Shown here: piece by piece, positions 693-45,477 of the stretch | How positions within the stretch are numbered: the first letter of the stretch is position 1 | Layout of the letters: the number at the start of each line of letters is the position of its first letter | IMG/VR virus record: IMGVR_UViG_3300009151_000034 | Coordinates: 64,001-128,000 of that record | DNA: 64,000 nucleotides | Reading direction: 5' to 3' (one strand) | Origin: a virus | Translations under genes and position numbers: made by a program | Notes under the pieces: model-generated | Database searches by the model: none | Told to the model about the DNA's origin: nothing | The model's input: only the letters and a program-made list of their open reading frames with translations

Positions 693-2582
693 TTAAATTT
701 CACATCCTCCTGCAACACATGCTAGTTCTTGTGTTCCTGTTGTCTTATCCTCATGTTCATTTACATTATACAAGTCGAAATCAACTTCTGGGAATGTCTT
801 GATCATTTCATCATATGCTTCTTTAGTCATTGGCTGATATGGTGCTTGTTGATAAATGGTGTCGTTGTAAGGTAAGAACGAAACGCCATTGATTTGATCA
901 AAGTGTTTATAGACCCAGGCACCAACTTCAAGCCATTCATGTTCACGCACATAGACAGTGATTGAAGGATTGTGTTCTACGTAATGCTCACCAACAATCA
1001 AGTAATGCTCTAGCTGATCGATAGCGGTCATTTCAGAAGCAATACGGCAATGTTCTGGTGACTTCATTGGGAAAGAAAATACCCAATTACTATCTTTCAT
1101 TACGTCAGTTTCATGAGGAACGCCCTGAGAAATCAAGAAATCAGATAGTGGGTCTTTCTTATCATTACGAACTGTTCTGATGTAGTATCGAGACATACGT
1201 GGATGAATACCAGATGACGAATCAACTAATTGTGAAACTGTCCCAGAGGGTTTCACGGTGGTAATTGATGCAGATGCAGGAATACCAAGTTTTTCTGCCC
1301 ATTCCTTGTTGACTTTTACGGCATGTTCACGAAGAGTAATAAACCAGTTCTTTGCTTCTTCTGTGGGATAACCAATAACAGGATGATCCATAATACCAGT
1401 TAATGAAACACCAAGTAAACGTTCTTCTTCAACATTCTTTTTCCAAACAGAACGAAGATAACGGAAGTCAGTTAGTGTGGATTGGAATGTTCCCATAATT
1501 GTTGCAAATTTAATTTTTGCAAGTAGAGTCTCTAAGGTATCTTGCTCACGGACAACAACCTCAGTCAAGTTACAAAATTCGTTTGGACGTAGAATAATTT
1601 CACCGCAAGGGTTTGTTCCGAAATCATAATTCGACTTACGGCGATCACCAAGACTCTTAACTTTCTTGATAGCAGCCACACGATTAACAATACCACGTTC
1701 ACCTGACTTAGAATCATAAAGAGATAGCCATTCTTTCATGAACGCACCAATATCAGGTTTTTCGGTATAAGCAGCAGAATTGTTAGCAAGCGCACGGTGA
1801 GCATCATCAACCCACCACTGACCATTCTTTGCACCACGCATACGATCATCAGAAAGATTTGACAATGAAATCAATGCACTACGACGAACACCACCAACTA
1901 CAACAACGTCGGCAATTTTGCACACAATATCATGGCATTCGATACTTGTTAGTTTTCTACCAGCAGCCTTACGGAAAATATTAATAGTAAATTTGAAAAG
2001 ATCATTGAGTGGAGCAGGTCCAGAAGAGCGACCACCAAATGTCTTAAGTGGAGCGCCAGCAGGACGTAGGGCAGTCAAATCCCATTGAGGCACCTGTCCA
2101 GCATAAAGAAGATTGATCAATTCACGATAAGAAGAAGCCCAGCCGATCTTTGAATCACGAACTTTAATTGTGGTTTCTGTTGGATGAAATTCTTCTGAGA
2201 CTACTGGTAGCTTGCTGACGAATTGGCGCTCAACAGAGAAGCCTAGGCCCGTGCCACACATTAAAATATACAAAGCCTCATCGAAACAACGAGGGTCATC
2301 TACGGCGATATATGAGCAATTATAACCCGCAACATTATCACGATCTAGAGCCTTACCAGCAGTCATAAGAGCACGCATGGAAGGCATAACTTCTAGGTTT
2401 ACGATAGAATTATAAATTTCATTCTTTGGAAAGGAATTGTCTCGTTCATAGAAATAATCGCAATATCTCTGAACAGTTTCTTCCCATGATTCGCGGCGAG
2501 TCTTTTCAGGAAGGAAACGGGCATATCTCGAAAGTGAAATATAGCGTTGATACGGATTAAGTCTTTGATTTTTAATACTCAT
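693..2582 (-). CDS. nrdJ: class II (adenosylcobalamin-dependent) ribonucleotide reductase
   Basis: TNPCGEI and VKPSGTVS motifs, C-terminal CVAGGCEI cysteine pair, no small-subunit gene adjacent. Confidence 0.92.
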   Translation of the reverse strand: MSIKNQRLNPYQRYISLSRYARFLPEKTRRESWEETVQRYCDYFYERDNSFPKNEIYNSIVNLEVMPSMRALMTAGKALDRDNVAGYNCSYIAVDDPRCFDEALYILMCGTGLGFSVERQFVSKLPVVSEEFHPTETTIKVRDSKIGWASSYRELINLLYAGQVPQWDLTALRPAGAPLKTFGGRSSGPAPLNDLFKFTINIFRKAAGRKLTSIECHDIVCKIADVVVVGGVRRSALISLSNLSDDRMRGAKNGQWWVDDAHRALANNSAAYTEKPDIGAFMKEWLSLYDSKSGERGIVNRVAAIKKVKSLGDRRKSNYDFGTNPCGEIILRPNEFCNLTEVVVREQDTLETLLAKIKFATIMGTFQSTLTDFRYLRSVWKKNVEEERLLGVSLTGIMDHPVIGYPTEEAKNWFITLREHAVKVNKEWAEKLGIPASASITTVKPSGTVSQLVDSSSGIHPRMSRYYIRTVRNDKKDPLSDFLISQGVPHETDVMKDSNWVFSFPMKSPEHCRIASEMTAIDQLEHYLIVGEHYVEHNPSITVYVREHEWLEVGAWVYKHFDQINGVSFLPYNDTIYQQAPYQPMTKEAYDEMIKTFPEVDFDLYNVNEHEDKTTGTQELACVAGGCEI

Positions 2583-3515: not shown

Positions 3516-3773
3516 TCAATTCACATTAAGCTTTGCAGGCTCAACAAAATAATAGCCCTGTTCTCTCAGATAGTCAAGTTGTTTTTCAGTTGCTTTGATG
3601 GCAGGATAAACACTGGATCGTTCATAACTAGGATTGAAAGCCCATAGTTGATATATTTCTACACCACACTTAAGAGCATGATACGTGAAATGACCTAGTG
3701 ATGCCTTTGAAAGATTTGGTATTTTTCCTTCTCTCTCAGAAATATGATATGCTTTTTTCGTATCTACCTTCAT
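3516..3773 (-). CDS. hypothetical protein
   Basis: 85-aa ORF in packed minus-strand run. Confidence 0.5.
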   Translation of the reverse strand: MKVDTKKAYHISEREGKIPNLSKASLGHFTYHALKCGVEIYQLWAFNPSYERSSVYPAIKATEKQLDYLREQGYYFVEPAKLNVN

Positions 3774-3966
3774 ACTCTCTTAAATTCTCATTAACTTGCC
3801 AAAATGAAAAGTGGTTAGCTTGTTCAGTTATAGAATATTCTTTATTATAAGGAATCCAAATTCGTTCCCTTATTTTTTCATTCTGTGTGTTTCTTGTCAT
3901 TTTCCATAACGTATCTTTTATATCATCATGTATTTTATATGCAAAAATACTTTTCTTACGCATCAT
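3736..3966 (-). CDS. hypothetical protein coupled to last QV mini-gene; possibly a degenerate member
   Basis: Start overlaps EDLNDA tail of 3956..4156; WQVNENL near C-terminus. Confidence 0.45.
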   Translation of the reverse strand: MMRKKSIFAYKIHDDIKDTLWKMTRNTQNEKIRERIWIPYNKEYSITEQANHFSFWQVNENLREYEGRYEKSISYF

Positions 3967-4156
3967 TTAAATCTTCCCTGACTTGATCCCAGATTTGATA
4001 GCTGACTTGATCTCCGACTTGATCTCCGACTTGATCGTGGACTTGACACCTGACTTGAATACCGACTTGATAGCTGACTTGATCCTCGGCTTGTTCACAG
4101 ACTTGATACCAGACTTGCCCGCTGACTTGTTTATTAATTTGTTTTTTAACAGTCAT
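3956..4156 (-). CDS. QV-tetrapeptide repeat mini-protein (array 1)
   Basis: MTVKKQ...(QVxx)n...EDLNDA, 66 aa. Confidence 0.7.
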   Translation of the reverse strand: MTVKKQINKQVSGQVWYQVCEQAEDQVSYQVGIQVRCQVHDQVGDQVGDQVSYQIWDQVREDLNDA

Positions 4157-4346
4157 CTAAATCTTCCCTGACTTGACTACTGACTTGACTCCTGACTTGA
4201 CTACTGACTTGACTCCTGACTTGAATACCAACTTGATTCCAGACTTGATCCTGGATTTGATCCCAGACTTGATAGCTGACTTGATCCCAGACTTGATCCC
4301 TGACTTGATAGCTGACTTGATCCCAGATTTGTTTTTTAACGGTCAT
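4146..4346 (-). CDS. QV-tetrapeptide repeat mini-protein (array 1)
   Basis: MTVKKQ...(QVxx)n...EDLDDC, 66 aa. Confidence 0.7.
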   Translation of the reverse strand: MTVKKQIWDQVSYQVRDQVWDQVSYQVWDQIQDQVWNQVGIQVRSQVSSQVRSQVSSQVREDLDDC

Positions 4347-4512
4347 CTAAATCTTCCCTGACTTGACTATTGACTTGATCCCCGGCTTGATCCCCGACAT
4401 GATCCCAGACTTGTTCACAGACTTGATACCAGACTTGATGCAAGACTTGATGCAAGACTTGATCCCCGGCTTGTTCACAGACTTGTTTACTAATTTGTTT
4501 TTTAACGGTCAT
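4336..4512 (-). CDS. QV-tetrapeptide repeat mini-protein (array 1; below ORF-track cutoff)
   Basis: Manual translation MTVKKQISKQVCEQAGDQVLHQVLHQVWYQVCEQVWDHVGDQAGDQVNSQVREDLDDR, 58 aa. Confidence 0.7.
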   Translation of the reverse strand: MTVKKQISKQVCEQAGDQVLHQVLHQVWYQVCEQVWDHVGDQAGDQVNSQVREDLDDR

Positions 4513-4702
4513 CTAAATCTTCCCTGACTTGATCCCAGACTTGATCCCAGACTTGATTTGTGATTTGAACCCTGACTTGATCCCCGACTTGATCCCTGAC
4601 TTGACCACAGACTTGATGCCTGACTTGATTACCGACTTGATACCTGACTTGTTCCCAGGCTTGATCCCAGATTTGATACCTGACTTGTTTTTTAACGGTC
4701 AT
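4502..4702 (-). CDS. QV-tetrapeptide repeat mini-protein (array 1)
   Basis: MTVKKQ...(QVxx)n...EDLDDR, 66 aa. Confidence 0.7.
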   Translation of the reverse strand: MTVKKQVRYQIWDQAWEQVRYQVGNQVRHQVCGQVRDQVGDQVRVQITNQVWDQVWDQVREDLDDR

Positions 4703-4886
4703 CTAAATCTTCCAAATTTTCCAATAATTGATTTTTAGCATATATTTTATTAATAACTACCATCGAAGAAAGAACCATATGCCTAGTATAAACAATAGTC
4801 TGTATTTGTCGATTTACACATATTGGTTCTTGCATATGCTTAAGAACATCATTATAAATTATTTTTTTGATTTTAGATAATACCAT
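4692..4886 (-). CDS. non-repetitive mini-protein sharing the EDLDDR junction (array 1 leader)
   Basis: MVLSKIKK...LEDLDDR, 64 aa from ATG 4886. Confidence 0.5.
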   Translation of the reverse strand: MVLSKIKKIIYNDVLKHMQEPICVNRQIQTIVYTRHMVLSSMVVINKIYAKNQLLENLEDLDDR

Positions 4887-4915
4887 GATATATGAAAGAC
4901 CTTTATACGACAGGA

Positions 4916-4952
4916 ATAAAAATGGGGAGCAGTTTATTTTTTGCTCCCCATT
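4916..4952 (-). terminator. intrinsic terminator after DUF6745-like gene
   Basis: AATGGGGAGCA/TGCTCCCCATT stem followed by T run on minus strand. Confidence 0.75.
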
Positions 4953-4968
4953 GATACAACCAGTTATT

Positions 4969-5850
4969 TTAGGTTCGGAACTCCAAATCCCGTAGTTCGT
5001 TTTCCTCAAACCCATATGTCCATGCGTTGGCTTGCAGGGCAGTTTTCATTTCAGGTGGCACAGGAATTGCGAATGACCTTCCAGTCCCACAAAGAACTTG
5101 CAAGAACTTTTCGGTGCCAATGTCGGGGATATCAACCTCTAGAAGTGTTCCGATCATTGGGTCTTCGTCAACATCGATAACCTTAGAATTCAATTCCTTA
5201 AGAATATGAACCCAACCAAGAATTTCACAAGCAACGCGGCGAAGTTCTAGATTATCTTGCTTCAATGCCTCTTTAGCTGTTAGAGACTTCTTATCAGCAA
5301 TCCAGTGCCAACGCTTACGATCAAGACGAACACCATGCCAAGCATATACTTTAGTGTCATCCATATATTCGATAGCAGGTCCATCTTCGCAATGTAGACG
5401 ATTCTGATCATCGAACTTGATAAGCATTGGGCGTTCCTGAATAATAGCCTCATCCTCATCAACCCAGGCCCAACCACCTTCCTTGGCATATTCAACTAGA
5501 CCGTTAATGATGCTGAGATCGATACCACAAACATCATTAAAATAAGAATAAAAGCTAATCCAAGAACTGTCCTGAGAACCGAAAATGTTTCCATTCATAA
5601 AGGAATTTACATCACCTTCGGGACGAATTGACTTGTAAATCTTATAGGCATCGTGTGGACCCTTAGCGTAATACATTTTGCTAGGTGCCTTAAGATTTTG
5701 CGTAGTATAACAAAGTGCAAGGGCCTTCTTAGCCTTAGCAAAATCAATAACATCGGTATTAAGACCAATCTTCAACCACTTGGCAAGATGCATAGGAATC
5801 ATTGCTTCTTGTTCTGGGGTTAGCTTATCGATCTTATTTGTAGCGGCCAT
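4969..5850 (-). CDS. DUF6745-like protein
   Basis: KLTPEQEA...KWLKIGL N-terminus, GSQDSSWISFY, RLHCEDGPAIEY..AWHGV, NLELRR motifs. Confidence 0.75.
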   Translation of the reverse strand: MAATNKIDKLTPEQEAMIPMHLAKWLKIGLNTDVIDFAKAKKALALCYTTQNLKAPSKMYYAKGPHDAYKIYKSIRPEGDVNSFMNGNIFGSQDSSWISFYSYFNDVCGIDLSIINGLVEYAKEGGWAWVDEDEAIIQERPMLIKFDDQNRLHCEDGPAIEYMDDTKVYAWHGVRLDRKRWHWIADKKSLTAKEALKQDNLELRRVACEILGWVHILKELNSKVIDVDEDPMIGTLLEVDIPDIGTEKFLQVLCGTGRSFAIPVPPEMKTALQANAWTYGFEENELRDLEFRT

Positions 5851-5877
5851 AATATAATTTCCTTTATGTTTCAGATA

Positions 5878-6240
5878 TTAGTCAGCAGCCTTACGAAAAC
5901 CTTCTGGTGTATACTCTCGCTGGCGACGAATCATATACTTTCCAGGAGGAACTAGAATGCTTTCGTGTGTATCATGTGATCGTAGATGATCGATTTTAGT
6001 ATCTTCTTTTACTAGAAGAAACATTTTATACAAATCAATGTTCTGTGTATTGCTTTTGTTAGTCACAGGTTCGAAAGCCTCAACATATTCAGCTTCCATT
6101 ACGTGATTATGCATAGTTTCAGAATGAGCAACCACGATATGACCATTCTCTGCATTTACAGGAACGATATTTTCTGGGAACTCGTTGATACGCACAATGA
6201 TAAAATCACCTTGCGCTGCCATATTTTTAAGAATCTTCAT
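5878..6240 (-). CDS. His-motif small protein of the type usually found beside DUF6745 genes
   Basis: QGD, HSETMHNH, HDTH, PGKYMIRRQREY motifs. Confidence 0.65.
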   Translation of the reverse strand: MKILKNMAAQGDFIIVRINEFPENIVPVNAENGHIVVAHSETMHNHVMEAEYVEAFEPVTNKSNTQNIDLYKMFLLVKEDTKIDHLRSHDTHESILVPPGKYMIRRQREYTPEGFRKAAD

Positions 6241-6265
6241 TTCAATCTCCTTTTGTTGTTCCTCA

Positions 6266-6294
6266 TTTATACATCACAGTGAGGTGGCTGTCAA
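6266..6294 (-). promoter_or_regulatory. sigma70-type promoter for the DUF6745 pair
   Basis: TTGACA-17-TATAAA. Confidence 0.65.
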
Positions 6295-14903: not shown

Positions 14904-17135
14904 TTAATGTGTTCCCATTTGGCAATGCCATTTTTTTAACGAAAGTGCCTTGCGTGTTGGACGATTATGCTTATCTTTCATGGGTCCAGGCACCCCACTC
15001 ATTCTTGCACAAAAAGATTTTCTACGGTTATATTCCTTACTACCCTGTTTTATTTCACTTGGTTCTGTTGTAACAGCGGTCTGAAGATGCGAACCTGGAT
15101 GTTCTTTTTTATAACTATTAACACCTTTTTGATTTAAACCACCTTTAGGATTTTTACCTTCTTTTCTTTGCCATGCCGCTGATTCAGAAATAACTCTTTT
15201 AATAGTATCTAGCGTGGTATGTTCTTCTTTTTTTTGTGAATTTCTGATTGCCTCGGCTGTTGGAGCGCCCGGTTCTCCTGGATTACGCATACGTTTACCA
15301 GCCTCTCTTCTTTTACGAATATTATACCAAAGACCTCTGTTAGATTCATCAACAGATTCTTGAACAGTTTTAATATGCGCCATAATCTGTCGGATTACCC
15401 CAGGAGAAATATCTTTATGGCGGGGAACTGCGATTGTATGCGGGGAATTTGGATGTTTATATACTTCATGATCACCACGGTCACGATGAAGAACGTAACC
15501 TATTTGTTTCATGTGGTTGGTTACGTCTCGGTGTGATCTACCAATATCAAAAGGATTAATCTTTTCGTATAGTGATTGTGTAAAATTAAACGATTCGTTC
15601 ATTGTCTTTTTTTCTCCTAATTTATCAAGCATTTTTTCTGCTGCTATACGAACATATTCATCTTCATCATTTAATGCTTTATCAAGATGTTCTTTAGTTG
15701 CATTTGGATGTGATGCTGCTGCCATACGAACATTCCAGTTTTTATCATCTAATGCTTTATTTAAGTTTTCTTTTGTTGCCTTTTCATGTTTTGTTGCTGC
15801 CATACGAACATTCCAGTTTTTATCATCTAATGCTTTATTAATATGTTCATTTGTGACATTTTGATTTCTTATTGCTGCCGCACGAACATGACGATCACTA
15901 TCATCAAGTGCTTTATTGATATTATTTTCATTAGCATTAGGATTTTTTGCTGCTGCTATACGGACATCAGATTCGCCGTCATTTAATGCTTTATCGATAT
16001 GTTCATTCGTTGCTTTTGGATGTTCTGCTGCTGCTCCACGAACAAAATCATCTTTATCATCAAGTGCTTTATTGATATTTTTTTCAGATGCGTTTGGGTG
16101 TTTGGTAGCGGCCAATCTAACATTATCATCTTTATCATCAAGTGCTTTATTGATATGATTTTCATTAGCATTAGGATTTTTTGCTGCTGCTTCACGAACA
16201 TAATGATCTTTATCATCAAGTGCTTTATTGATATTTTCACTTGTTGCATTTGGATGTCCTGCCGTTGCTTCACGAACTTCTGGATTTTTATCGTCTAACG
16301 CTTTATTTAAATCGTCTTTAGTTGCATTTGGATGAAGCATAATGGATTTGCCATTATCATTATATACTCCTGGGTGTTTAGTATAAAGCAAACTCCCACC
16401 TTTATGTTCACCAGAAAGTCTCTTAGCTAAATCTTCTGCATGTTTTTTAAATCCTTCGTGGTCAAGACCATAGTATGAATCAACGGCATATGCTGTATGG
16501 CCTTCGTTGTTTATATGAGGTTGTAATGTTGCTCTTGCAATTTCTTCGCCTTTGTGATTATGAAGATATGCAACAACAGTGCCATGTTTTGTTTCTTGTT
16601 GTAGATAATGCCTATTGATACCCGTATGGACATTTTTACAAGAACTATTTTCCCACGACTGTTCGGGGGCAGTCTGATTACGAATACCCGCCCCCGATCT
16701 TGTAATTCTAACACTTAAACCTGTTTGTTTCTTGCCTTGTCTGGTGCTGTCATTTGCAAATCCATTAATAAGTTGACTTGGCGCTTTTGATTTTGTAAGA
16801 ATTCCGCCAATTTTTACTTTTCTTCCATATTTGTCTGTTGTTTGACCTGCCCTATAATCGTCGGATTCAATATTTTGGCCGATGTGACGCTCTACTGCTT
16901 TATGTATTTCAGACTTATCGACAGTCCCAGAAAGAGGTTCTGATATTTCATCATTACCTTTGCCGAAAAAATGATCCGTGGCTGCTACTGCTTTTGGGTC
17001 ACGTTCCCATGTAGAAGCTTCTTTTTCTTCGGCTGGTGTAAGTTTCTCAAGAAGAGGCACAGTATTTACCGTAGAACTTGCCAATTGTTTTTGTTGGTTA
17101 GAAATAAACAGTGTCGCAAGTTCTACGGTATTCAT
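14904..17135 (-). CDS. multidomain protein: HEAT-like repeats + HicA-like domain + basic C-terminal phage domain
   Basis: About nine 26-aa repeats; GYVLHRDRGDHEVYKHP..IAVPRHKDISPG; AAWQRKEGKNPKGGLN..RRKSFCARM. Confidence 0.75.
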   Translation of the reverse strand: MNTVELATLFISNQQKQLASSTVNTVPLLEKLTPAEEKEASTWERDPKAVAATDHFFGKGNDEISEPLSGTVDKSEIHKAVERHIGQNIESDDYRAGQTTDKYGRKVKIGGILTKSKAPSQLINGFANDSTRQGKKQTGLSVRITRSGAGIRNQTAPEQSWENSSCKNVHTGINRHYLQQETKHGTVVAYLHNHKGEEIARATLQPHINNEGHTAYAVDSYYGLDHEGFKKHAEDLAKRLSGEHKGGSLLYTKHPGVYNDNGKSIMLHPNATKDDLNKALDDKNPEVREATAGHPNATSENINKALDDKDHYVREAAAKNPNANENHINKALDDKDDNVRLAATKHPNASEKNINKALDDKDDFVRGAAAEHPKATNEHIDKALNDGESDVRIAAAKNPNANENNINKALDDSDRHVRAAAIRNQNVTNEHINKALDDKNWNVRMAATKHEKATKENLNKALDDKNWNVRMAAASHPNATKEHLDKALNDEDEYVRIAAEKMLDKLGEKKTMNESFNFTQSLYEKINPFDIGRSHRDVTNHMKQIGYVLHRDRGDHEVYKHPNSPHTIAVPRHKDISPGVIRQIMAHIKTVQESVDESNRGLWYNIRKRREAGKRMRNPGEPGAPTAEAIRNSQKKEEHTTLDTIKRVISESAAWQRKEGKNPKGGLNQKGVNSYKKEHPGSHLQTAVTTEPSEIKQGSKEYNRRKSFCARMSGVPGPMKDKHNRPTRKALSLKKWHCQMGTH
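15620..16340 (-). repeat. 78-bp coding repeat (26-aa HEAT-like units)
   Basis: HPNAT.E.INKALDD....VR.AA repeated. Confidence 0.9.
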
Positions 17136-42209: not shown

Positions 42210-43388
42210 TTAATCGATAACAACAGAGTTCCATCGAGCAGTCTTTAGAATGCCTCGGGTCTTTTCAAACTGAGTATTTGAACTGAGATGGATATACACG
42301 TTTTGCTTCACCATGTCAAGAGAAATTCCTTCCTCTTTTTTATCCCATACTTTAAAAATAAGACCACGCATCGTAGGCTCTGAATCCTGTGTTTTAATAG
42401 CAAAATTCTTGCGGGAAATACCAGAAGCGGCAATCAACATAAGTTCGCTGTTGATGTTGCCCCAGAAATCATAGATATCCTTCCACACTGCATCCTGAAA
42501 GTCAACCAATTTCTTCTTATCGTTATCGGAAAGAAGTGGCATCAGATCATCAGTCTTTTCGTCAATGATAAGACCAACAACATCACGTTCATTCTCTAGC
42601 ATACTTTTGGCACGGTGTAAAGAGATATAGGTATCGGCCTTGACCTTCACCATATGACCATCATCAAAACGGATTACAATACCTTCTCTGTCTTCCCATT
42701 TGCGGACGCTTTCGGTATTTTCTTCGAATGTTTTAGATGCATCATGAGACTCAACACAAGATACTACTGGAATATCAAAAAACGAAGCAAAAGACGATAA
42801 TGCAGTATGGTTAAGATATCGTCCAGTGAAATTACTACGAACGGCAGTCAAAATAAGTTGGTCTTTTGGGTAGTCAACCACAATACGTTGCTGGCGGCTG
42901 CACCATTCAAAAATAGGCGTCATACCAATATTAATCATATATTCAGCGGCTTTTTGATACTGAGGGTTATTAGCAACAAATACTTCTGCTTGCATAGAAA
43001 CTTCGGTCACGCCCATCTTTGTTCCCCAGCGGATATGACCACGAATAGGAATAGGACGGATCATAGAACCATCAAGTTTTTCTAAAAAACGGTGCGACTC
43101 TGTAATATTAAGATCAGTTACATCGGCTCGTTCGCCATAATTAAAAAATTTGTGATATGGGCGTGAAATAACTTCTCCGGTTTCTGTATCAAAAATAAGC
43201 CCACGAAGTTCACGGCGAATAGCAGAAGCACGATCAATCACGGGAGGAAATGTATCAGACCCCATACGAACATAATTTACGACTGTGTAACTATCTTTTT
43301 CCACAATGATAAAATTATGGTCATCTTTAATCACTTCACGGACTTCTGCCAACGTGATGTTAATCGGAAACTCATAATGTAGGGTCAT
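42210..43388 (-). CDS. rnlA: RNA ligase 1
   Basis: RELRGLIF, PYHKFFN, EKLDGS, FEW, EGIVI, KVK. Confidence 0.92.
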   Translation of the reverse strand: MTLHYEFPINITLAEVREVIKDDHNFIIVEKDSYTVVNYVRMGSDTFPPVIDRASAIRRELRGLIFDTETGEVISRPYHKFFNYGERADVTDLNITESHRFLEKLDGSMIRPIPIRGHIRWGTKMGVTEVSMQAEVFVANNPQYQKAAEYMINIGMTPIFEWCSRQQRIVVDYPKDQLILTAVRSNFTGRYLNHTALSSFASFFDIPVVSCVESHDASKTFEENTESVRKWEDREGIVIRFDDGHMVKVKADTYISLHRAKSMLENERDVVGLIIDEKTDDLMPLLSDNDKKKLVDFQDAVWKDIYDFWGNINSELMLIAASGISRKNFAIKTQDSEPTMRGLIFKVWDKKEEGISLDMVKQNVYIHLSSNTQFEKTRGILKTARWNSVVID

Positions 43389-43445: not shown

Positions 43446-43748
43446 TCAAGCTAAATCTTCCTGGACTTGATTATCGACTTGATCCCAGGCTTGATCCCAG
43501 ACTTGATTATCGACTTGATCCCAGACTTGATCCCAGACTTGACTCCTGACTTGATCCCAAACTTGATCCATGACTTGTTTTTTGACTTGATCCCAGACTT
43601 GATCCCTGACTTGATGTAGGACTTGATACTGGGTTCGATTTCTGACTTGAACATTAACTTGATCGCTGACTTTATCCCAGACTTGATTCCAGACTTGAAT
43701 TTTAGCTTGATAACTAATTTGATTACTAATTTGATTTTTAACAGTCAT
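43446..43748 (-). CDS. QV-tetrapeptide repeat protein (array 2)
   Basis: MTVKNQ...(QVxx)n...EDLA, 100 aa. Confidence 0.7.
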   Translation of the reverse strand: MTVKNQISNQISYQAKIQVWNQVWDKVSDQVNVQVRNRTQYQVLHQVRDQVWDQVKKQVMDQVWDQVRSQVWDQVWDQVDNQVWDQAWDQVDNQVQEDLA

Positions 43749-43914
43749 CTAAATCTTCCCTGACTTGATCCCAGACTTGATCTCTGACTTGAATACCAAC
43801 TTGATTCCAGACTTGTTTCCAGACTTGTTGCATGACTTGATCTCTGACTTTATCACAAACTTGAACCCCGACTTTATCATAAACTTTATCACAGACTTGA
43901 ATGTTATCAGTCAT
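43738..43914 (-). CDS. QV-tetrapeptide repeat mini-protein (array 2; not in ORF track)
   Basis: MTDNIQVCDKVYDKVGVQVCDKVRDQVMQQVWKQVWNQVGIQVRDQVWDQVREDLDDC, 58 aa. Confidence 0.7.
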   Translation of the reverse strand: MTDNIQVCDKVYDKVGVQVCDKVRDQVMQQVWKQVWNQVGIQVRDQVWDQVREDLDDC

Positions 43915-44083
43915 TTAAATCTTCCCAGACTTGATCGTTGACTTGATCCCTGACTTGAATACCAACTTGATTCCAGACTTGTTTCCAGGCTTGATGTAGG
44001 ACTTGCCTGCTGACTTGTTGATTGTCAACTTGATCCCAGGCTTGAATTTTAGCTTGATAACTAATTTGTTTTTTAACAGTCAT
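43907..44083 (-). CDS. QV-tetrapeptide repeat mini-protein (array 2; not in ORF track)
   Basis: MTVKKQISYQAKIQAWDQVDNQQVSRQVLHQAWKQVWNQVGIQVRDQVNDQVWEDLND, 58 aa. Confidence 0.7.
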   Translation of the reverse strand: MTVKKQISYQAKIQAWDQVDNQQVSRQVLHQAWKQVWNQVGIQVRDQVNDQVWEDLND

Positions 44084-44267
44084 CTAAATCTTCCTGGACT
44101 TGATCCCGGATTTGATCCCTGACTTGATCGCTGACTTGTTCCCTGACTTGATTCCAGACTTGATGTAGGACTTGATACTGGGTTCGATTTCTGACTTGAA
44201 CATTAACTTGATCGCTGACTTGTTCCCTGACTTGATCATGAATATCATAATTAAATTTATTATACAT
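44073..44267 (-). CDS. QV-tetrapeptide repeat mini-protein (array 2)
   Basis: MYNKFNYDIHDQVREQV...EDLDDC, 64 aa. Confidence 0.65.
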   Translation of the reverse strand: MYNKFNYDIHDQVREQVSDQVNVQVRNRTQYQVLHQVWNQVREQVSDQVRDQIRDQVQEDLDDC

Positions 44268-44421
44268 CTTCGTCGGCGGATAGAACATTTTTGACTGTAT
44301 CTTTAATAACTTTCAAAAGACCTATAGAAGCAAAATGGCGCATAGCCTCATCATCAAGATCAAGTGTTAGAGTAGCACCACCATCATCATGATCCTGGCA
44401 GTCAACAACTTCAATTTTCAT
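44260..44421 (-). CDS. small hypothetical protein
   Basis: MKIEVVDCQDHDDGGATLTLDLD..., 53 aa, GGGAG RBS. Confidence 0.55.
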   Translation of the reverse strand: MKIEVVDCQDHDDGGATLTLDLDDEAMRHFASIGLLKVIKDTVKNVLSADEDV

Positions 44422-44422
44422 T

Positions 44423-44782
44423 TCACAATCTCCCTAAACATTCTTTAAATTCTTCTGGTAAAATTACATTGTTTGGCACATTCTTAAACATCCATGCGAT
44501 TTCGTGAGGCTTATAACCAGAGAGGCCAGTCCCGACAGCAGTAAGAATGAACCGTAGATCAGGATTATCATACGAAAATTGGATAAAGATGTCAACATAT
44601 TTTTTGATCTCTGTTAATGGTAAAGTATTGATTTTATTATCTTTTGTCGGGATTGCATAGCTGTTACCCTGTAGACCAACACCCTGACCATAGATAGCGC
44701 CATGATACTTCTTAGCAAAAAGTGCGGCACCTTTACCGTGCCTTCCGGCTGTGTTGGAACCGAAAGTGAAAATATCACGCAT
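44423..44782 (-). CDS. macrodomain-like phage protein
   Basis: FTFGSNTAGRHGKGAA, SYAIPTK, TAVGTGLSG. Confidence 0.75.
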   Translation of the reverse strand: MRDIFTFGSNTAGRHGKGAALFAKKYHGAIYGQGVGLQGNSYAIPTKDNKINTLPLTEIKKYVDIFIQFSYDNPDLRFILTAVGTGLSGYKPHEIAWMFKNVPNNVILPEEFKECLGRL

Positions 44783-44951
44783 AATTTAAATCCTCTTTTA
44801 CTTGATTTATGACTTGAACCCCGATTTGACCATAAACTTGATCCCAGACTTGATCCCTGACTTGTTCATAGACTTGTTCATAGACTTGATCCCCGGCTTG
44901 ACCCCCGACCTGATCCCTGACTTGATACTTGACTTGTTTTTTAACGGTCAT
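44775..44951 (-). CDS. QV-tetrapeptide repeat mini-protein (not in ORF track)
   Basis: MTVKKQVKYQVRDQVGGQAGDQVYEQVYEQVRDQVWDQVYGQIGVQVINQVKEDLNYA, 58 aa. Confidence 0.7.
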   Translation of the reverse strand: MTVKKQVKYQVRDQVGGQAGDQVYEQVYEQVRDQVWDQVYGQIGVQVINQVKEDLNYA

Positions 44952-45123
44952 TTAAATCTTCCCAGACTTGACTTGAGGCTTTATCAATAATTTCACGGTT
45001 GACTTTATAACTGACCGGATCATTGGCTTGGCCCCAGATTTCATATTTGGCTTGATTACAAATATGATCATAGAATTGAATGTTGACTTGTTTTGTGATT
45101 TTAATTTTATCTACAATAGTCAT
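44941..45123 (-). CDS. diverged QV-family mini-protein
   Basis: Residual 4-aa period, ends QVWEDLNDR. Confidence 0.6.
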   Translation of the reverse strand: MTIVDKIKITKQVNIQFYDHICNQAKYEIWGQANDPVSYKVNREIIDKASSQVWEDLNDR

Positions 45124-45302
45124 AGAAACTTTAAATCTTCATCCAATTGAAATCTTAGATGCACCTTATATTGATTAAATACTATATCTTCAACTTCTCC
45201 CCATATAACAAAAGAAATGTGTTCGGCATAATTTAAGTCCCAAATTTTTCGAAAACTTTCCCTATCTGTGTATGAAGCCATAATTTTATTTTTAACGGTC
45301 AT
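45120..45302 (-). CDS. diverged QV-family mini-protein
   Basis: Starts MTVKNK, ends QLDEDLKFL. Confidence 0.55.
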   Translation of the reverse strand: MTVKNKIMASYTDRESFRKIWDLNYAEHISFVIWGEVEDIVFNQYKVHLRFQLDEDLKFL

Positions 45303-45477
45303 TTAAATCTTCACCAATTTGATTCCAGGTAAACCACCACATATCACCCACAGAACCATCTGCTGGCAATAACATAGTAATTTCATAAGGATAAACATCA
45401 CTATAATATTTTTCTTGACATCGATAACGACAATCCCGCCATACATCTTTTTTTATTTTATCTATAAGTTTATTCAT
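45292..45477 (-). CDS. diverged QV-family mini-protein
   Basis: Ends WNQIGEDLNDR. Confidence 0.55.
   Translation of the reverse strand: MNKLIDKIKKDVWRDCRYRCQEKYYSDVYPYEITMLLPADGSVGDMWWFTWNQIGEDLNDR

Follow-up and report, generated by a model that had tools for sequence, protein, structure and literature searches.

Why should a gene whose relatives carry a long four-residue repeat in mid-protein lack that repeat, and lie directly upstream of a chain of small genes that encode the same kind of repeat on their own? The question is raised by the stretch of viral DNA analysed here (64,000 bp, hereafter the window), which comprises bases 64001–128000 of a complete 149,097-bp virus record with direct terminal repeats. 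Neighbouring genes include those for ribonucleotide reductase, ThyX, a primase and an RnlA-like RNA ligase, and a search with the 3.1-kb region of interest found no match in cultured phage DNA. A first-pass annotation, made from the letters alone, had proposed that the gene belongs to the DUF6745 family, that it has lost an internal 'QV' tract found in many members, and that the tract has been externalised into separate genes, giving a possible, undescribed system of three parts.

We examined the gene itself (4969–5850, minus strand), which encodes a protein of 293 residues. Its membership of DUF6745 is secure: Pfam PF20530 matches over profile positions 7–200 of 206 (E = 6.5e-29; 101.1 bits against a cut-off of 27), and phrog_31813 is also matched. 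The protein contains both family motifs, FGSQDSSWISFY (family pattern G-x-[HQ]-D..W..FY) and NRLHCEDGPA...AWHG (family pattern R-L-H-x-E-D-G-P-A ... W-H-G), and in an alignment of 56 DUF6745 sequences H153, W171, G173 and R204 are invariant. The same alignment places the tract of the relatives after residue 77 of the window protein, where there is a 15-residue non-repetitive linker just ahead of the FGSQDSSWISFY motif; no period-4 tract was detected in the protein, in agreement with the annotation. In an AlphaFold2 (AF2) model of this 'core' protein (pLDDT 93.9, pTM 0.82), the residue-77 site is a short, confidently modelled loop joining two helices (pLDDT 96–98 around it). The complete genome contains exactly one DUF6745 copy.

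A second gene (5878–6240, minus strand; 120 residues) had been named as a conserved partner of the first, and it proved to be both present and conserved. The protein matches phrog_27831 (E = 3.6e-9) and contains the motifs QGD, HSET.H.H and RRQREY; a homologue adjoins DUF6745 in 74 of 80 related IMG/VR loci. Across an alignment of 36 sequences the invariant motifs are QGD, HSETGH.H, H..R..D.H and RQRE, and the AF2 model is all-beta (pLDDT 84.5). The invariant Q-G-D, E-T, several histidines and a C-terminal aspartate suggest a metal or ligand site. The idea that the partner might be a cupin, taken from its H-x-H motif, found no support in fold or profile searches.

Both conserved proteins are without a known fold. 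Structural comparison with the PDB (Foldseek and VIA-align, 48,161 chains) gave no match for the core (best Foldseek E-value 0.25, best VIA Z 4.4) or for the partner (best Z 3.3), and profile searches of the two against PDB sequences returned nothing. ESM Atlas look-ups yielded no informative neighbour, no PADLOC-DB family matched the core, the partner or a mini-protein of the kind described below at E ≤ 0.01, and in the literature library searched no paper refers to DUF6745 or PF20530 and no member of the family has been studied.

Between the core gene and the small genes downstream lies a terminator-like hairpin followed by a U-run (4913–4952, minus strand), close to where the annotation had drawn a terminator. 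It has an 11-bp stem and a 10-nt loop (stem 4921–4952, U-run to approximately 4913; −22.1 kcal/mol, z = −5.05). A consensus terminator scan skipped the hairpin because its loop is 10 nt long. The stem and loop are identical in a close relative, locus L004, where QV genes follow the same hairpin and the core protein is 96% identical.

The QV tracts that had been read as separate genes just downstream are indeed separate genes, arranged as a chain on the minus strand. The chain opens with a non-repeat gene (4692–4886; 64 residues, C-terminus LEDLDDR) that overlaps the next start by 11 nt and has a homologue at 1111–1305 of L004 (DNA identity approximately 93%). Four QV mini-genes follow, at 4502–4702 (66 residues, of the form MTVKKQ-(x-x-Q-V)n-REDLDDR), 4336–4512 (58 residues, with an 11-nt overlap junction), 4146–4346 (66 residues) and 3956–4156 (66 residues, C-terminus REDLNDA). 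These second to fifth members of the chain share one layout: MTVKKQ, 10 to 14 x-x-Q-V units, and then REDLDD. The last of them is chained through a further 11-nt overlap to a non-repeat gene of 76 residues (3736–3966), which has no family match.

The annotation located this array correctly and missed a second, 39 kb from the DUF6745 gene, which holds about half of the mini-genes. The second array (43446–45477, minus strand) consists of two blocks. The first (43446–44288) contains four chained QV genes (43446–43748, 43738–43914, 43907–44083 and 44073–44288), and the second (44775–45477) contains a QV gene (44775–44951), a degenerate one (44941–45123) and two non-repeat members (45120–45302 and 45292–45477), for a total of five clear QV genes, one degenerate gene and two non-repeat chain members. 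The detached repeat is thus encoded in this genome by about ten separate mini-genes over two arrays, and QV repeats occur at these two places only, both inside the window. The underlying 12-nt periodic pattern gave 49 matches in the window and none in shuffled sequence. Two further features of the second array were noted: an RnlA-like RNA ligase gene (42210–43388) adjoins it, and it is interrupted (44423–44782, minus strand) by a gene for a 119-residue protein of phrog_2072 (unknown function, E = 3.5e-43) together with a 53-residue gene.

Consecutive genes in both arrays are joined by a 28-nt junction, GAAGATTTAGATGACCGTTAAAAAACAA, in which one gene ends and its successor begins. Eight copies with 0–3 mismatches are present, four in each array (4139–4712 and 43731–45312), and the occurrence of this sequence in arrays 39 kb apart suggests exchange between them. 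The EDL-type C-terminus of the QV genes is part of this junction and is common to the non-repeat chain members as well, and it coincides with a purine-rich stretch 5–6 nt before the next ATG. Because the non-repeat genes share this ending and the purine-rich stretch falls within it, the EDL-type C-terminus may mainly represent the translational-coupling and start signals of the following gene rather than a docking motif. We also considered whether a +1 or −1 frameshift joins successive mini-genes into longer proteins, and set it aside: the A-run comes only after the stop, re-pairing of the P-site codon is impossible, and the overlaps in related arrays are plain ATGA.

The regularity of the arrays at the DNA level raises a first alternative, namely that the repeats act as DNA or RNA, for example as clustered GATC sites (for Dam or restriction) or as protein-binding arrays, with their coding capacity secondary. 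GATC occurs 20 times per kb within the arrays (3956–4702 and 43446–45123) and 3.3 times per kb in the rest of the window. This sixfold density arises because the dipeptide D-Q is always encoded as GAT-CAA, and the enrichment is absent from relatives with QL or SAV repeats. There, as in SV and SL tracts, both the internal tracts and the mini-genes keep the peptide pattern using other codons and without GATC, so conservation is at the protein level. We consider a nucleic-acid role for the repeats very improbable.

We then asked how general the internal tract is. An exhaustive profile search placed the DUF6745 family at 15,600 clusters at 50% identity. From IMG/VR, 80 loci were gathered with a domain-alignment scan (stricter single-protein peptide patterns had given none), and in 37 of these the protein has an internal tract of period 4, 27 to 195 residues long, which always follows the N-terminal helices and precedes the Y-G-Q-H-D..W..FY motif. 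Among the best 150 cluster representatives a tract is detectable in 59 (QV in 20, SV in 14, QL in 13 and SL in four) and no tract is detectable in the remaining 91; the types seen in all are QV, SV, QL, SL and xSAV, with MW202476 providing an example of an x-S-S-L tract. The tract, at the position that the annotation had named for it, is therefore a feature of many family members. Tract loss is not a peculiarity of the window copy: the nearest relatives of the window core are all tract-less proteins of about 283–295 residues, and the tract-less state is common to a whole clade of hundreds of proteins.

The single-chain arrangement is well illustrated by a Mycobacterium prophage, prophiGD102-1, in which the N-terminal helices of gp38 are followed by approximately 45 x-x-Q-L units, and these by the DUF6745 domain; the gene upstream (gp37) encodes the QGD...RRQREW partner (phrog_27831). 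The window has the same N-terminal helices and C-terminal domain with the same partner next to them, and its mini-genes share the repeat pattern; a tblastn search with the third QV mini-gene (4146–4346) as query matches the internal tract of gp38. The difference is one of location: in prophiGD102-1 the tract lies inside the core, whereas in the window it has gone from the core and is found in about ten separate genes. In agreement with this relationship, 41 of 56 longer proteins matched by a mini-gene carry PF20530. A third arrangement is found in the Microcystis phage Ma-LMM01, where gp174 contains no repeat and a long non-repeat linker, with gp175 as its partner and no mini-genes seen annotated beside it.

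QV tracts are not exclusive to DUF6745, and a few occur in a macro-like family (P0173 and L135, the latter at 1191–2378, minus strand). These proteins consist of a weak N-terminal macro-domain match, a middle region, the tract and a C-terminal domain of approximately 70 residues, the last of which is also present in P0183. The presence of QV tracts in such a family hints at a conflict-related role. Pattern matches in giant-virus MAG contigs (L139, L141, L156, L165 and L172) proved to be unrelated low-complexity proteins (PVQV, QPQV, VVKQ and EKQV).

If the mini-genes are the tract in another form, then cores with and without the tract should differ in their surroundings, an association that the annotation had foreseen. 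We counted free repeat mini-genes within 10 kb of the 80 IMG/VR loci and found them at 24 of the 43 tract-less loci and at none of the 37 tract-bearing ones. In about 20 of the 24, one mini-gene lies within a few hundred bases of the core–partner pair. Contigs of three of the nearest relatives carry the module: L004, described above; L008, with partner, core and four QV genes; and L006, with a partner plus QV genes flanking the core on both sides. The tract-less loci without mini-genes are mostly genome fragments (in L014 the array lies just past the 10-kb flank), and within the tract-less clade 12 of 37 proteins have no mini-gene within 10 kb, again mostly on genome fragments. One locus is an exception: L048, on a 53,742-bp record (G005) that is 91% complete, encodes a tract-less DUF6745 protein of 271 residues and a partner and has no QV-type array.

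The same distribution was observed when the search was reversed. When IMG/VR was scanned for runs of five CAAGTC units spaced 12 nt apart, at least 119 stretches were returned; of 79 loci, about 50 have mini-genes. Nine loci contain a tract-bearing DUF6745 gene, none of them with mini-genes, and 12 contain mini-genes together with a DUF6745 gene that lacks a long QV-bearing ORF. We also checked 11 whole records that had mini-genes and no DUF6745 gene in the stretch first examined. Two of these are complete (196,948 and 158,520 bp); each has a single DUF6745 gene with an open frame of 297–304 residues, an array that begins directly after it, and more arrays elsewhere. All three complete genomes with mini-genes (G000, G006 and G009) therefore encode one tract-less DUF6745 protein with an array directly downstream. 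At 16 DUF6745 loci in bacterial genomes, some with tracts, no mini-genes were found. In the samples examined a phage has the internal tract or the free mini-genes, never both.

We next considered how often the two states have been exchanged, using a tree built on the N- and C-terminal parts of the proteins with the tract columns removed. The window core falls in one tract-less clade of 33 rows (support 94/89). A second case lies elsewhere: in L061 the core (392 residues) contains a non-repeat linker and is accompanied by a partner gene and, at a distance of 3.7 kb, by four x-S-A-V genes in tandem; the sister of L061 is L062, which has an internal x-S-A-V tract (support 100/100). A single clade of all tract-less proteins is rejected by 191 log-likelihood units (AU p = 1e-5), for a group that was named after seeing the tree. 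A further candidate, L043, has a partner, a core of 294 residues and a chain of five x-x-Q-L genes, and lies close to Q-L-tract relatives in the tree; its independent origin was set aside, since a tree placing it with the main tract-less clade is not rejected (p = 0.24). As judged from these trees, the tract became detached on no fewer than two occasions, and on each the free genes kept the repeat type of the closest relative with an internal tract. Descent of the mini-genes from the tract, with continued usefulness next to the core, accounts for this pattern, which is otherwise difficult to explain. Shared tract sequence, complementary co-occurrence and repeated splitting all point to an externalised tract and a module of three parts, much as the annotation had supposed, and the underlying gene arrangement (a tract-less DUF6745 gene with detached repeat genes) is a recurring and undescribed one.

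What the detached proteins do is a separate matter. The mini-genes share the sequence and the frame of the tract, and we lean, by a small measure, towards the reading in which the mini-proteins replace the tract in a functional link with the core–partner module. An alternative is that they are autonomous: tract-derived decoys, mimics or inhibitors of whatever host factor the tract engages, which do not bind the DUF6745 core. Such independence would fit with the hairpin that separates the core gene from the chain, with the arrays that lie far from the core gene in the three complete genomes, with the nearly complete record that has a tract-less core and no array, and with the QV tracts found in another protein family; the model of the tract-less core is, moreover, compact and confident around the insertion site with nothing to fill the place of the tract. 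The position of one array directly after the core gene in every complete genome, and of a mini-gene close to the pair at most mini-gene loci, argues the other way, and replacement of one form by the other is the simplest account of the strict either/or distribution. We therefore regard autonomy of the mini-proteins as unlikely on the whole, and continue with the reading in which they substitute for the tract.

The repeats themselves vary in an unusual manner. Across 118 units in the window, the Q and V codons are near-invariant even at their third positions (CAA in 117 units, GTC in 101), and the two preceding codons vary at their first and second positions, encoding W, R, G, S, K and D, Y, N, K. 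Identity to L004 is 93% over the flank and the first non-repeat gene, 95% over the repeat cores and 67% over the variable codons; the two variable codons of the 12-nt unit diverge about five times faster than the flanks. The number of mini-genes also differs between the two phages. We suggest that this pattern reflects two processes: unequal recombination and conversion, acting among units as well as at the 28-nt junction, and selection that favours amino-acid change.

A harsher interpretation of the same variation is that the arrays are by-products of repeat instability, in which a 12-nt repeat prone to slippage and recombination, with a self-propagating 28-nt junction, spreads as near-neutral or selfish sequence and the open frames reflect a unit that cannot encode stops. 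The very composition of the unit leaves four of its six frames open, phages that share 93% identity in their flanks have arrays of different copy number and content, and fixation of CAA-GTC at third positions is what recent expansion predicts. Against these points, an ATG in the QV frame, a stop and the conserved coupling junction are features of every unit; the arrangement is kept across cores that are 53–96% identical, and there are QL and xSAV versions of it in which the junctions differ; and the variable codons stay in a narrow set (W, R, G, S, K; D, Y, N), with no stop among the 118 units. On this evidence we think it distinctly improbable that the arrays are by-products.

Concentration of variation at defined codon positions of a phage protein is also characteristic of diversity-generating retroelements. 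The window arrays differ from these in having no template/variable repeat pair and in variation that is not limited to adenines. A search for reverse transcriptase (PF00078) found no match in the complete 149,097-bp record, in contrast to control genomes, which do match; a diversity-generating retroelement was rejected because the genome encodes no reverse transcriptase. A second phage precedent, cited as a parallel in PMC2884959, is VR2 of bbp36 in Bordetella phage BMP-1, a variable-number in-frame tandem repeat in a non-essential gene. According to its description it is set apart by a 24-bp unit, a different protein and the lack of separate mini-genes.

Among studied proteins, the one analogue is gp54 of the mycobacteriophage Tweety. 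Its central tetrapeptide repeats keep two residues fixed and vary the other two, with G, W, S and Y among those that vary (PMC2884959, PMC9262239). Gene 54 has fixed third codon positions, as do the window units (PMC2884959); its repeat number changes fast, and mutants in repeat number gain counter-defence against Phrann gp29/gp30 (PMC9262239). The likeness is one of analogy: gp54 has no PF20530 match and belongs, with Che8 gp57 and PMC gp51, to phrog_3416, and is therefore not homologous to the window core (phrog_31813). Its repeat is A-A-x-x, no phrog_27831-type partner accompanies it, and free-standing repeat genes have not been described for it. Because of this analogy, and because the genes are located in variable early-gene regions, we suggest that the module may act in phage–host conflict, in counter-defence or target recognition.

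These observations can be combined in a working model. The three parts of the putative, conserved phage accessory module would be an all-beta, His-rich partner, the DUF6745 core, and a library of detached proteins bearing the hypervariable tract, which most other lineages carry as an insert in a single surface loop of DUF6745. The mini-genes would be translated by coupling, and unequal recombination at the junction would add or remove them as whole genes. The mini-proteins would take over the job of the tract, offering several surfaces decorated with W/R/G/S/K and D/Y/N at once, and would be either bound to the core–partner pair or acting on the same target. A bolder form of the model, which we offer as a speculative possibility, is that the core and partner constitute an invariable machine into which any one of a large set of repeat subunits, each with a gene of its own, can be fitted, a design that has evolved repeatedly from a single-chain ancestor. 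If this is true, one phage could make mixed complexes with different recognition surfaces, and would possess a combinatorial, recombination-fed plug-in library against variable host defences or targets.

The DUF6745 tract is among the fastest-changing coding features in these phages, and its repeated conversion into an array represents a natural experiment in which the variable part has been separated from the constant part. It makes testable which of the partners binds what, and whether repeat proteins of the gp54 type are tunable counter-defence adaptors. Should the mini-proteins dock onto the core, viruses would have a new means of diversifying a recognition surface, one that uses neither reverse transcriptase nor DNA inversion.

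Comparison of the window with L004 also revealed differences near ThyX. The gene after ThyX in the window encodes a 629-residue reductase (phrog_367), and the gene at the same place in L004 (3623–5026) encodes a ribonucleotide reductase of class I type that has an ATP-cone and a weak intein-splicing match. The interval between DUF6745 and ThyX contains different small genes in the two phages.
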